Shown piece by piece: positions 25,726 to 36,060 of a stretch of 64,000 nucleotides of DNA. The notes under the pieces were generated by a model. It saw nothing but the letters and a program-made list of their open reading frames with translations, did no database searches and was not told the DNA's origin. Each line of letters starts with the position of its first letter. Positions within the stretch are counted from its first letter, which is position 1. Source of the stretch: Escherichia coli (GTDB lineage: Bacteria; Pseudomonadota; Gammaproteobacteria; Enterobacterales; Enterobacteriaceae); NCBI RefSeq assembly GCF_024223415.1, contig NZ_CP100500.1. One strand, 5' to 3'. A program made the translations under genes and the position numbers.

Positions 25726-25753
25726 TTGACTTATAAGTCTCAGAAAGTAATAT
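25726..25753 (+). promoter_or_regulatory. candidate sigma-70 promoter of the serV-arg tRNA operon
   Basis: TTGACT 25726-25731, 16-bp spacer, TAATAT 25748-25753, followed by GC-rich discriminator gcgccacgcagcg (stringent-type). Confidence 0.55.
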
Positions 25754-25815: not shown

Positions 25816-25908
25816 GGTGAGGTGGCCGAGAGGCTGAAGGCGCTCCCCTGCTAAGGGAGTATGCGGTCAAAAGCTGCATCCGGGGTTCGAATCCCCGCCT
25901 CACCGCCA
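25816..25908 (+). tRNA. serV: tRNA-Ser (anticodon GCU)
   Basis: 93-nt cloverleaf with long variable arm; acceptor GGTGAGG/CCTCACC; anticodon loop ctGCTaa; genomic CCA. Confidence 0.95.
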
Positions 25909-25911
25909 TTT

Positions 25912-25988
25912 GCATCCGTAGCTCAGCTGGATAGAGTACTCGGCTACGAACCGAGCGGTCGGAGGTTCGAATCCTCCCGGATGCACCA
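25912..25988 (+). tRNA. argV: tRNA-Arg (anticodon ACG), copy 1
   Basis: 77 nt gcatccgtagctcagctggatagagtactcggctACGaaccgag...ggatgcacca. Confidence 0.95.
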
Positions 25989-26123
25989 TATTCTCCGTAA
26001 CCTTCAGCGATGAAGGTATGGAAGAGGTGGCGGTACTAACCGCAGGCACCAGGGAGGATAACGTTGCTTTAGCAACGGCCCGAAGGGCGAGCCGCAAGGC
26101 GAGTAATCCTCCCGGATGCACCA
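25989..26123 (+). repeat. structured 135-nt inter-tRNA element ending in a 19-nt tRNA-Arg 3-prime remnant
   Basis: Several short hairpins (ccttcagcgatgaagg, cgttgctttagcaacg); terminal aatcctcccggatgcacca at 26105-26123 matches the tRNA-Arg T-arm/acceptor 3-prime end; near-identical copy at 26404-26536. Confidence 0.8.
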
Positions 26124-26187
26124 TCTCTTACTTGATACAGCTTTAGTAGCGGTATCAAAAAATCTGCAGTAAAGTAAGTTTCCCGAT

Positions 26188-26264
26188 GCATCCGTAGCTC
26201 AGCTGGATAGAGTACTCGGCTACGAACCGAGCGGTCGGAGGTTCGAATCCTCCCGGATGCACCA
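26188..26264 (+). tRNA. tRNA-Arg (anticodon ACG), copy 2
   Basis: 77 nt, identical to copy 1. Confidence 0.95.
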
Positions 26265-26326
26265 TCTCTTACTTGATATGGCTTTAGTAGCGATATCAAT
26301 ATCAGCAGTAAAATAAATTTCCCAAT

Positions 26327-26403
26327 GCATCCGTAGCTCAGCTGGATAGAGTACTCGGCTACGAACCGAGCGGTCGGAGGTTCGAATCCTCCCGGATGCA
26401 CCA
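26327..26403 (+). tRNA. tRNA-Arg (anticodon ACG), copy 3
   Basis: 77 nt, identical to copy 1; only 62-nt spacer from copy 2. Confidence 0.95.
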
Positions 26404-26536
26404 TATTCTCCGAAATCTTCAGCAATGAAGATATCGAAGAGGTAGCGGAATTAACCGCAGGCACCAGGAAGGATAACGTTGCTTTAGCAACGGCCCGAAG
26501 AGCGAACGCCAGCGAGTCATCCTCCCGGATGCACCA
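26404..26536 (+). repeat. second copy of the structured inter-tRNA element with tRNA-Arg 3-prime remnant (26518-26536)
   Basis: about 90 percent identical by eye to 25989-26123; ends catcctcccggatgcacca; no intact tRNA follows. Confidence 0.8.
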
Positions 26537-26683
26537 TCTTCTCCAAAAAATTTCCTTCAAAAATATCTCATTTCTAAATAACTACTTTATCCATTTCCTG
26601 AATTTTCTTCTCCTTCGCCATCAGCGACAAAATCAAGCAATTACGCTAAAGTAGCGTCATATTTTTCGACTTGCGAGAAGACC

Positions 26684-27250
26684 ATGTACGAGCGTTATGC
26701 AGGTTTAATTTTTGATATGGATGGCACAATCCTGGATACGGAGCCTACGCACCGTAAAGCGTGGCGCGAAGTATTAGGGCACTACGGTCTTCAGTACGAT
26801 ATTCAGGCGATGATTGCGCTTAATGGCTCGCCCACCTGGCGCATTGCTCAGGCAATTATTGAGCTGAATCAGGCCGATCTCGACCCGCATGCGTTAGCGC
26901 GTGAAAAAACAGAAGCAGTAAGAAGTATGCTACTGGATAGTGTCGAGCCGCTTCCTCTTGTTGAAGTGGTGAAAAGTTGGCATGGTCGTCGCCCAATGGC
27001 TGTAGGAACGGGGAGTGAAAGCGCCATCGCTGAGGCATTGCTGGCGCACCTGGGATTACGTCGTTATTTTGACGCAGTCGTCGCTGCCGATCACGTCCAA
27101 CACCATAAACCTGCGCCAGACACATTTTTGTTGTGCGCGCAGCGTATGGGCGTGCAACCGACACAGTGTGTGGTCTTTGAAGATGCCGATTTCGGTATTC
27201 AGGCGGCCCGTGCAGCAGGCATGGACGCTGTGGATGTTCGCTTGCTGTGA
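26684..27250 (+). CDS. yqaB: HAD-family sugar phosphatase YqaB
   Basis: 188 aa; HAD motif I FDMDGTILDTE. Confidence 0.9.
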   Translation: MYERYAGLIFDMDGTILDTEPTHRKAWREVLGHYGLQYDIQAMIALNGSPTWRIAQAIIELNQADLDPHALAREKTEAVRSMLLDSVEPLPLVEVVKSWHGRRPMAVGTGSESAIAEALLAHLGLRRYFDAVVAADHVQHHKPAPDTFLLCAQRMGVQPTQCVVFEDADFGIQAARAAGMDAVDVRLL

Positions 27251-29312: not shown

Positions 29313-29385
29313 AAAAAGGCCACTCGTGAGTGGCCAAAATTTCATCTCTGAATTCAGGGATGATGATAACAAATGCGCGTCTTTC
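29313..29385 (-). ncRNA. micA: MicA (SraD) small RNA
   Basis: Reverse complement reads gaaagacgcgcatttgttatcatcatccctgaattcagagatgaaattttggccactcacgagtggccttttt, with terminator hairpin ggccactcacgagtggcc plus U-run. Confidence 0.95.

Positions 29386-35978: not shown

Positions 35979-36060
<82 letters not shown>

Follow-up and report, generated by a model that had tools for sequence, protein, structure and literature searches.

A three-gene tRNA-Arg(ACG) array with two tRNA-linked repeats at the serV-arg locus of an Escherichia coli strain

Escherichia coli K-12 has 22 TLRs, tRNA-linked repeats, at ten loci, the first of which were seen in 1978 (Egan & Landy 1978, Rudd 1999, as summarised in PMC8144298). 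What defines a TLR is that its final 18–19 nt are the same as the 3′ terminus of whichever tRNA or rRNA lies upstream of it; a strain deleted for all 22 has been constructed, an effect of the repeat family on processing has been suggested, and TLRs are without known function save for the three that are rRNA-linked (PMC8144298). Those three, RrA, RrB and RrF, are located 3′ of the 5S rRNA in rrnA, rrnB and rrnD. As is characteristic of the class, their ends copy the 3′ end of the upstream stable RNA, and they are transcribed within the stable-RNA operon and processed (PMC8144298). They differ from the elements considered here in being linked to 5S rRNA, in their position between two terminators and in binding Hfq and CsrA in vitro, and the 19 tRNA-linked TLRs, the arg ones included, score <0.01 in a CsrA-binding predictor (PMC8144298). 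The other described system to be compared is the RtT family of Rfam (RF00391), with rttR of the tyrT-tyrV operon, whose repeats are of ~175 nt each.

Among the loci with TLRs is the serV-arg operon, to which the tRNA-Arg(ACG) genes of K-12 are confined. In MG1655 there are four of these genes, argV, argY, argZ and argQ, with gaps of 198, 62 and 198 nt between them, and alignment places three elements, one after each of argV, argZ and argQ. They bear the names raV, raZ and raQ in the strain table in the supplement of PMC8144298. How does the locus compare in a strain where the array is shorter?

The serV-arg locus of the window

The window, i.e., the whole stretch of 64,000 nucleotides that was analysed, has the synteny csrA - serV - tRNA-Arg(ACG) array - yqaB. 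Its flanks, alaS-csrA upstream and yqaB-yqaA downstream with the yqaB ATG at 26684 (placed after the GPEC1446 RefSeq annotation), match several E. coli chromosomes at 100% identity, and therefore the locus is the E. coli serV-arg tRNA operon (Table 1). ARAGORN identified tRNA-Ser(GCU) and, following it, three tRNA-Arg(ACG) genes, found no fourth tRNA-Arg in the window, and located the single other tRNA of the window at 58356. A previous sequence-only reading of this DNA had described the three tRNA-Arg genes 3′ of serV as identical 77-mers, and ARAGORN and an exact-string search agree on this, the Rfam tRNA scores also being equal for all three. The same reading placed a 135-nt element with a 19-nt tRNA 3′ end after copy 1 and a 62-nt gap between copies 2 and 3, both of which were found; the gap between copies 1 and 2 is 199 nt. 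Its statement that K-12 has four tandem tRNA-Arg(ACG) genes is borne out by the MG1655 annotation, so that the reference locus is not itself three-copy. The window has three tRNA-Arg genes and two elements, not the K-12 form of four tRNA-Arg genes and three elements.

Table 1. Features of the serV-arg locus in coordinates of the window
Feature	Coordinates	Strand	Basis and remarks
Candidate sigma-70-like promoter, TTGACT-16-TAATAT	25726..25753	+	Consensus scan 9/12; ~60 nt 5′ of tRNA-Ser
tRNA-Ser(GCU), serV orthologue	25816..25908	+	ARAGORN; Rfam tRNA 56.8 bits; identical to K-12 serV (alignment)
tRNA-Arg(ACG) copy 1, argV position	25912..25988	+	ARAGORN; Rfam 67.1 bits; identical to K-12 argV
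tRNA-linked repeat Ea, orthologue of K-12 raV, 135 nt	25989..26123	+	Sub-threshold RtT match; MFE; K-12 alignment
3′ domain of Ea	26046..26123	+	RNAalifold consensus and pair counts, 14 Arg-type elements
Pseudo-3′ end of Ea, exact copy of the closing 19 nt of tRNA-Arg (AATCCTCCCGGATGCACCA)	26105..26123	+	Suffix comparison; starts in T-loop
64-nt spacer	26124..26187	+	Start TCTCTTACTTGATA... = start of spacer directly 3′ of tRNA (repeat search)
Interval bound to hold the putative unit-loss junction	26179..26292	+	139-bp removal test; first informative SNP 26293
tRNA-Arg(ACG) copy 2	26188..26264	+	ARAGORN; Rfam
62-nt short spacer, 'A..A' type	26265..26326	+	SNPs at 26293 and 26324
tRNA-Arg(ACG) copy 3, last of array, argQ position	26327..26403	+	ARAGORN; Rfam
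tRNA-linked repeat Eb, terminal, raQ positional equivalent, 133 nt	26404..26536	+	RtT 22.6 bits; MFE
Pseudo-3′ end of Eb, 18 nt identical to tRNA	26519-26536	+	Suffix comparison
Weak terminator-like hairpin and T-run, between array and yqaB	26643..26667	+	Pattern scan

A second element after copy 3 and the lack of a tRNA beyond it had also been pointed out, and this element is present, though it is of 133 nt and its tRNA end of 18 nt. What does not hold is the use that was made of it, namely as the mark of a missing gene. As a rule the array of K-12 and of most E. coli closes with an element 3′ of the last tRNA and no tRNA beyond, and as the K-12 array also ends in this way, the terminal element of the window is no sign that a gene has gone. 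As for signals, the promoter candidate is a pattern match only, with 2 such sites found against 1.4 expected, the terminator-like pattern is weak (2 sites found against 1.1 expected), and the 64-nt spacer has a weak hairpin (z = -1.9).

Origin of the three-copy array

A flank-only query, made of the unique flanks of the locus, was searched in 5,426 complete E. coli genomes, and a spread sample of 59 from the 5,425 that matched, plus the 45 best matches, served in place of a full census of architectures. Array length in the genomes sampled is from ~455 to 1273 bp, and the representatives of the length classes have 3–6 tRNA-Arg genes and 0–4 elements. Judged by array length, ~54 of the 59 have four copies, 3 have three, and five and six copies are each present in 1, on the assumption that equal array length is equal architecture, one representative of each length class having been checked; the K-12 architecture accounts for 22 of the 59. 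Three-copy arrays of 690, 587 and 455 bp occur too, in unrelated lineages. Among the best 45 matches listed, nine genomes have flanks at least 99.9% identical to those of the window, and in these nine the array is of 860 bp, the four-copy allele, in six (e.g., NCTC10444), of 721 bp, the length class of the window, in two, and of 900 bp in one. Both three-copy relatives are from chickens, and the four-copy ones are from calf, pig, human and waste water. At this locus there is also a precise 134-nt presence/absence difference with a direct repeat at its bounds, and, from the existence of E. coli genomes with anything from 0 to 4 elements, the elements are dispensable at the locus.

The closest four-copy relative, NCTC10444, has flanks identical to those of the window, and its layout is tRNA, element, tRNA, 62-nt spacer, tRNA, 62-nt spacer, tRNA, terminal element. 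On removal of 139 bp, a tRNA plus a 62-nt spacer, its locus becomes the 2723 nt of the window with 0 mismatches. The removal works equally well at any of 115 consecutive start positions, due to 115 nt of perfect identity, and the interval that has to contain the junction runs from the final 9 nt of the 64-nt spacer through tRNA copy 2 into the 62-nt spacer, of which it takes in the first 28 nt. Four-copy NCTC10444 and TUM13936 have a terminal element identical to Eb, and in an O157 strain it differs from Eb by 2 nt. The 0-mismatch deletion, together with the same terminal element in four-copy relatives, therefore argues for loss of an internal short unit, and by sequence comparison it came about among the identical tandem tRNA genes, through unequal homologous recombination or replication slippage. 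That the event was a loss and not a gain rests on parsimony. Two SNPs tell the short spacers of the four-copy parent apart, the second spacer being the one left in the window, and since other lineages share these SNPs the four-copy form is not a recent duplication. The ancestor would have had tRNA, 135-nt element, 64-nt spacer, tRNA, 62-nt spacer, tRNA, 62-nt spacer, tRNA and terminal element, and its loss of one 139-bp unit would have left three genes for the sole tRNA that reads CGU, CGC and CGA. The change in copy number by recombination between repeats, which the sequence-only reading had proposed, thus stands to the extent that one repeat unit appears to have been cleanly lost, but the unit is an internal tRNA with its 62-nt spacer. 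By the standards of copy-number change in tandem tRNA arrays this is ordinary: one exact unit is gone, its breakpoint cannot be placed within the perfect identity, and related genomes gain and lose units, with 3 to 6 copies.

Is the fourth gene really gone from the chromosome, or just from the assembly? A true four-copy array of 860 bp could have been collapsed by one 139-bp unit, with the spacer SNPs picked from mixed reads. The remaining short spacer of the three three-copy genomes with the same flanks is A..A in the window, G..G in DSM 103246 and G..A in GPEC1446, which is as random consensus choice would give, and six genomes with the same flanks are four-copy. However, the 721-bp array is present in at least two independent complete-level RefSeq genomes plus the window, the 690-, 587- and 455-bp architectures show three copies to exist in unrelated lineages, long reads easily span 860 bp, and the chicken origin of the three-copy relatives, as against the other sources of the four-copy ones, may be a lineage signal. 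Collapse is quite unlikely on these grounds, and the three SNP combinations at the junction fit one lineage having lost a unit three times independently or, with less likelihood, collapse of the repeat on assembly. Another derivation begins with a K-12-like array, from which raZ x raQ crossing-over would have removed argQ in a 275-bp deletion and left a chimeric terminal element, and it has in its favour that pairwise alignment to K-12 has one clean 275-bp gap and that the 5′ part of Eb matches raZ and the 3′ part raQ. But the 'chimeric' element is already present in the four-copy strains named above, the route involves ~7 extra substitutions in the element where that from NCTC10444 involves none, and identity to the K-12 flanks is just 98.8%. 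K-12 was rejected as parent, this derivation being highly improbable. Preferred, and in our estimation very probable, is that the window has a minor allele of the csrA-serV-arg(ACG)-yqaB operon which has lost one 139-bp unit, and whose elements are TLRs of a divergent short RtT subfamily, either dispensable or with a subtle function. Both parts of the locus are of known kinds, the array being a case of tandem tRNA copy-number change and the elements belonging with TLR/RtT.

The two elements, their relatives and their folding

No base separates Ea from tRNA-Arg copy 1 or Eb from copy 3, so each is inside a tRNA operon, directly 3′ of a stable-RNA gene, and terminates in 19 nt (Ea) or 18 nt (Eb) of tRNA end. 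A direct-repeat search recovered the unit of tRNA plus element as a 180-nt repeat of 94% identity, and showed the pseudo-3′ end and its trailer to repeat the true tRNA 3′ end and trailer. The two align to the MG1655 elements after argV and argQ, and with raV, raZ and raQ they share locus, sequence family, a position directly 3′ of a tRNA-Arg(ACG) and the 18–19 nt identical to the tRNA 3′ end. While Ea hardly differs from the K-12 element after argV, Eb, in the terminal (raQ) position, differs from raQ at ~11 positions and its 5′ part resembles raZ. The sequence-only reading had not recognised the element as a tRNA-linked repeat or as a relative of RtT.

Full-length matches to the Rfam RtT model score 29.1 bits for Ea (33.3 in a truncated alignment) and 22.6 for Eb, below the gathering score of 45 bits, and for that reason the elements were rejected as members and filed as distant relatives. 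The K-12 counterparts fare similarly, with 29.2 for raV, 31 for raZ and 22.8 for raQ, and Arg-type elements of Escherichia, Salmonella and Enterobacter are at 22–41 bits, also below threshold. Relatives linked to Tyr, Lys, Pro and Ser tRNAs, and to tRNA-Arg in Yersinia, score 55–137 bits, the tyrT-operon (Tyr) copies of K-12 reaching 133–137 and the Pro, Lys, Ser and Yersinia Arg copies 55–95. What the Arg elements and RtT have in common, as seen with MAFFT, is a core of ~45 nt consisting of AACGUUGC-loop-GCAACG, GCCC-GAA-GGGC, a short GC hairpin and GAGUAAUCC, and the full-length cmscan alignments of Ea and Eb likewise contain the common core AACGUUGC..GCAACGGCCCGAAGGGCGA..GAGUAAUCC. The resemblance to rttR extends from the core hairpins and the ...GAGUAAUCC junction to the host tRNA 3′ end, the closing helix formed with the T-stem/acceptor 3′ strand, and recurrence in tandem with tRNA genes. 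Unlike RtT, however, Ea and Eb have an unrelated 5′ half, with two small hairpins instead of the RtT 5′ domain and its GGUUCGA segment, and they are shorter (Ea is of 135 nt). Taken on their sequence, the elements of the window are a divergent short subfamily of the known RtT family.

A scan for a 19-nt motif of the core, with one genome per bacterial species, gave a wider view. The motif has two occurrences in the window, where 0 are expected by chance, and is common to 68 tRNA-linked elements in other genera, behind genes for tRNA-Tyr, Lys, Arg(ACG), Pro and Ser(UGA) in many Enterobacterales as well as Gilliamella and Photobacterium. These elements end 50–55 nt further on in 18–20 nt of their own host tRNA, and most of them pass the RtT threshold, at 55–95 bits. 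Matches in high-GC non-enterobacterial genomes (Bradyrhizobium, Micromonospora, Actinomycetota MAGs and others) have no tRNA upstream and are probably due to chance or coding.

By eye, the 5′ hairpins could be taken for the D and anticodon arms of a decayed tRNA-Arg copy. That candidate was dropped when the shuffle test gave no signal: local alignment of the 5′ 116 nt with tRNA-Arg scores no better than the shuffle mean, with 232 of 500 shuffles for one element and 425 of 500 for the other scoring at least as high. Neither ARAGORN nor the Rfam tRNA model had a match on the elements, i.e., they have no likeness to a tRNA body. The weak Rfam matches antisense to the tRNAs (Plastid-ycf2, HPnc0260 and others) are all sub-threshold and reflect tRNA-like composition. 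A relative in Yersinia nurmii keeps a 37-nt tRNA-Arg fragment.

The hairpins that the sequence-only reading wished to see folded are real features of the predicted structure, with a minimum free energy far better than that of shuffled sequences for both Ea (-63 kcal/mol, z = -6.1) and Eb (-44.4 kcal/mol, z = -4.1), 0 of 200 shuffles being as good. Ea has two 5′ hairpins and a 78-nt 3′ domain; the domain is of 76 nt in Eb, and so in both it is tRNA-sized. In the RNAalifold consensus of 14 Arg-type elements from >10 genera, where the 5′ hairpin pair is variable, GCACC.GGGAGGAU pairs with AUCCUCCC.GGAUGC to close a three-hairpin junction and the ACCA-3′ tail is unpaired; the closing duplex of Ea comes to -20.1 kcal/mol. 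Pair counts on the 14 elements have 95.5% of cells paired, and compensatory change in seven pairs versus 2.9 ± 1.0 in shuffles (0/500) and at most 3 in slid controls. Helices 3 and 4 are inside the motif used for collecting the relatives, so their invariance is uninformative and no support was counted from them. Within the Arg type the closing helix hardly varies, since its 3′ strand is fixed by the tRNA, and most support for it therefore comes from comparison across hosts, where the 5′ strand pairs best with the 3′ strand of its own host (Tyr, Lys and Arg). As modelled, the closing helix is similar to the host tRNA's coaxial acceptor/T-arm.

Two other accounts of the elements have to be set against the conserved RNA that this describes. 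Identity from T-loop to CCA is what T-loop-type att sites of tRNA-targeting integrases are expected to have, and genomic islands carry their own copy of the tRNA 3′ end. The elements might then be scars of a mobile element that targeted the T-loop, brought its own tRNA 3′ end and was mostly lost, with 116 nt left between 19-nt direct repeats. The repeated run of 18–19 nt from T-loop to CCA accords with this, as does the core being behind five tRNA species, each time with the 3′ end of its own host, and the precision of element presence and absence at the repeat boundaries. Yet in the 116 nt between the repeats there is no integrase or island DNA and no conserved ORF, unequal crossing-over between array units gives presence and absence equally well, the core is an RNA of conserved structure in which compensatory changes are seen from genus to genus, and the upstream strand co-varies with the host 3′ strand, which speaks for selection on RNA and not for a decaying scar; we think this origin very unlikely. 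A coding role, i.e., for a small basic peptide on the model of the tpr 'protamine-like protein' in the tyrT repeat, is extremely improbable. Ea does have a 42-codon ATG ORF (26018-26146) and tpr is annotated within rttR in K-12, but in Eb the ATG is ATC and there is no equivalent to the 42-aa ORF, leading to rejection of coding potential, and variation among copies and genera tracks base-pairing and not codons. The reading kept is of structured repeats of the TLR/RtT kind.

Processing, possible function and meaning

Ea and Eb would be co-transcribed with the tRNAs, each folding as two 5′ hairpins and a tRNA-sized 3′ domain in which a helix that reproduces the T-stem and acceptor 3′ strand of the host tRNA would close the three-hairpin junction and leave the ACCA tail. 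The element 3′ end may then be treated like a tRNA end, with an RNase E cut and subsequent RNase T/PH trimming, and the element would be set free as a separate RNA of ~130 nt, its insertion being presumably harmless to maturation of the neighbouring tRNAs. Because the element ends like a tRNA and is followed by the same trailer, it is probably cut and trimmed at its 3′ end as a tRNA is, and freed as a separate RNA. The annotated K-12 rttR RNA, from the tyrT operon, ends exactly at the pseudo-CCA of its RtT copy, in keeping with this. It is in keeping too with the idea of the sequence-only reading that the pseudo-3′ end could influence RNase processing, an idea akin to the one published for the repeat family (PMC8144298).

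Are the elements, then, dispensable passengers or do they have a subtle function? Either would suit the reading preferred here. A bolder proposal, which we hold to be unlikely, is that the 3′ domain is a selected, host-specific mimic of the acceptor/T-arm helix with an ACCA tail and a conserved three-hairpin module where the T-loop would be, and so a functional RNA and not a passenger, e.g., a decoy or buffer, or a processing guide. Were it so, the decoy could act on enzymes or toxins with recognition of tRNA ends, of which RNase P, RNase T/PH, the CCA-adding enzyme, poly(A) polymerase and tRNA-targeting nucleases are candidates, and the alternative role would be that of a built-in processing guide for polycistronic tRNA precursors.

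With tRNA-Arg(ACG) confined to one locus in K-12, the source strain of the window probably has three genes instead of four for the tRNA reading CGU, CGC and CGA, and a three-copy strain may have slightly less tRNA-Arg2. In a strain reduced to one copy tRNA-Arg2 is 16-fold lower and growth is impaired in LB medium specifically, and one-copy and duplicated-operon strains show that rich-medium growth can shift, as can the division of TadA editing between tRNA and mRNA (PMC13170351). For loss of one gene in four the phenotype is likely mild, with tRNA-Arg2 dosage falling modestly at most. The major arginine tRNA, tRNA-Arg2, which is the main TadA substrate, thus has as its sole gene family a recombination-prone tandem array whose copy number drifts from 3 to 6 among E. 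coli strains, and as an instance of array change what deserves remark is just that four copies persist in most lineages despite turnover of spacers and elements. While little hangs on the locus itself, the wider point is the TLR/RtT family, which is conserved, structured and mimics tRNA ends, and was first described more than forty years ago.

The core module behind other tRNA genes

The matches to the core motif (L019-L138), found in genome contigs with GCAACGRCCCGAAGRGYGA, show that many Enterobacterales, as well as Gilliamella and Photobacterium, have the same core module downstream of tRNA genes for Tyr, Lys, Arg, Pro and Ser. Where the module is tRNA-linked, its end is always the 3′ end of its own host's tRNA, and in the long forms the 5′ strand of the host T-stem and GGTTCGA stand directly upstream of it, a layout that reads as if the module had been placed within the T-loop. 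Where the host tRNA is that for Pro, Lys or Ser, tRNA and element are separated by a terminator-like hairpin with a T-run. Bacteria that are high-GC or unrelated also give exact matches (Bradyrhizobium, Micromonospora, and Actinomycetota and Myxococcota MAGs); most of these have no upstream tRNA, and chance or coding sequence probably accounts for those without one. Two others (Marinobacterium and Amphritea) are placed 121 nt downstream of tRNA-Arg(CCG), with no 3′-end copy detectable at either.

Features of the window and of loci fetched for comparison (L-numbers)
Feature	Location	Strand	Remarks
42-codon ATG ORF	window 26018-26146	+	inside first element (Ea)
MicA sRNA	window 29314-29385	-	Rfam 83.9 bits, above gathering score
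naRNA4 match	window 35983-36060	-	Rfam 76.4 bits, above gathering score
tRNA, CAT anticodon	window 58356-58431	+	ARAGORN label tRNA-Met; elongator Met or lysidine-modified tRNA-Ile2
Arg-linked element, Yersinia nurmii	L080 2034-2160	-	RtT (RF00391) 70.8 bits, above threshold
40-nt mini-element	second or third inter-tRNA gap		gap length 101-102 nt; precedes a normal spacer
Core-motif matches, high-GC or unrelated bacteria	L029, L033, L034, L044, L058, L064, L065, L074, L075, L085 and others

Variant forms and neighbouring features

The Arg-linked element of Yersinia nurmii keeps an internal 37-nt tRNA-Arg fragment, from anticodon arm to T-loop, whose score none of 500 shuffles reached; this piece of the tRNA body is absent from the E. 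coli type. The ORF of the window's first element recalls the annotated tpr ORF of the tyrT repeat, but its conservation does not extend to the second element (Eb), where its ATG is ATC. Elsewhere in the window, MicA and the naRNA4 match are ordinary for this chromosomal region.

Some E. coli alleles (L005, L007, L009, L014, L017), an O157 strain among them, carry a mini-element composed of the full element's first 13 nt, the hairpin CATCA-GTGA-TGATG, which differs in sequence from that of the full element while retaining pairing, and a short tail; it has neither core nor pseudo-3′ end.

Array variability in E. coli

The window, DSM 103246 and GPEC1446 (L002, L004, L016) each have three tRNA copies and identical flanks, and their sole differences are SNPs at window positions 26293 and 26324, the same that separate the two short spacers of the four-copy parent. 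Because the combinations differ (A..A in the window, G..G in DSM 103246, G..A in GPEC1446), these spacers imply either three separate 139-bp losses within one lineage or repeat collapse in assembly.

Across the csrA-yqaB intervals (L004-L018) tRNA-Arg(ACG) genes number 3-6 and linked elements 0-4; in E. coli this array is hypervariable. Since about nine in ten sampled E. coli genomes nevertheless keep four tRNA copies, though spacer and element content differs greatly, that persistence hints at selection on gene dosage.
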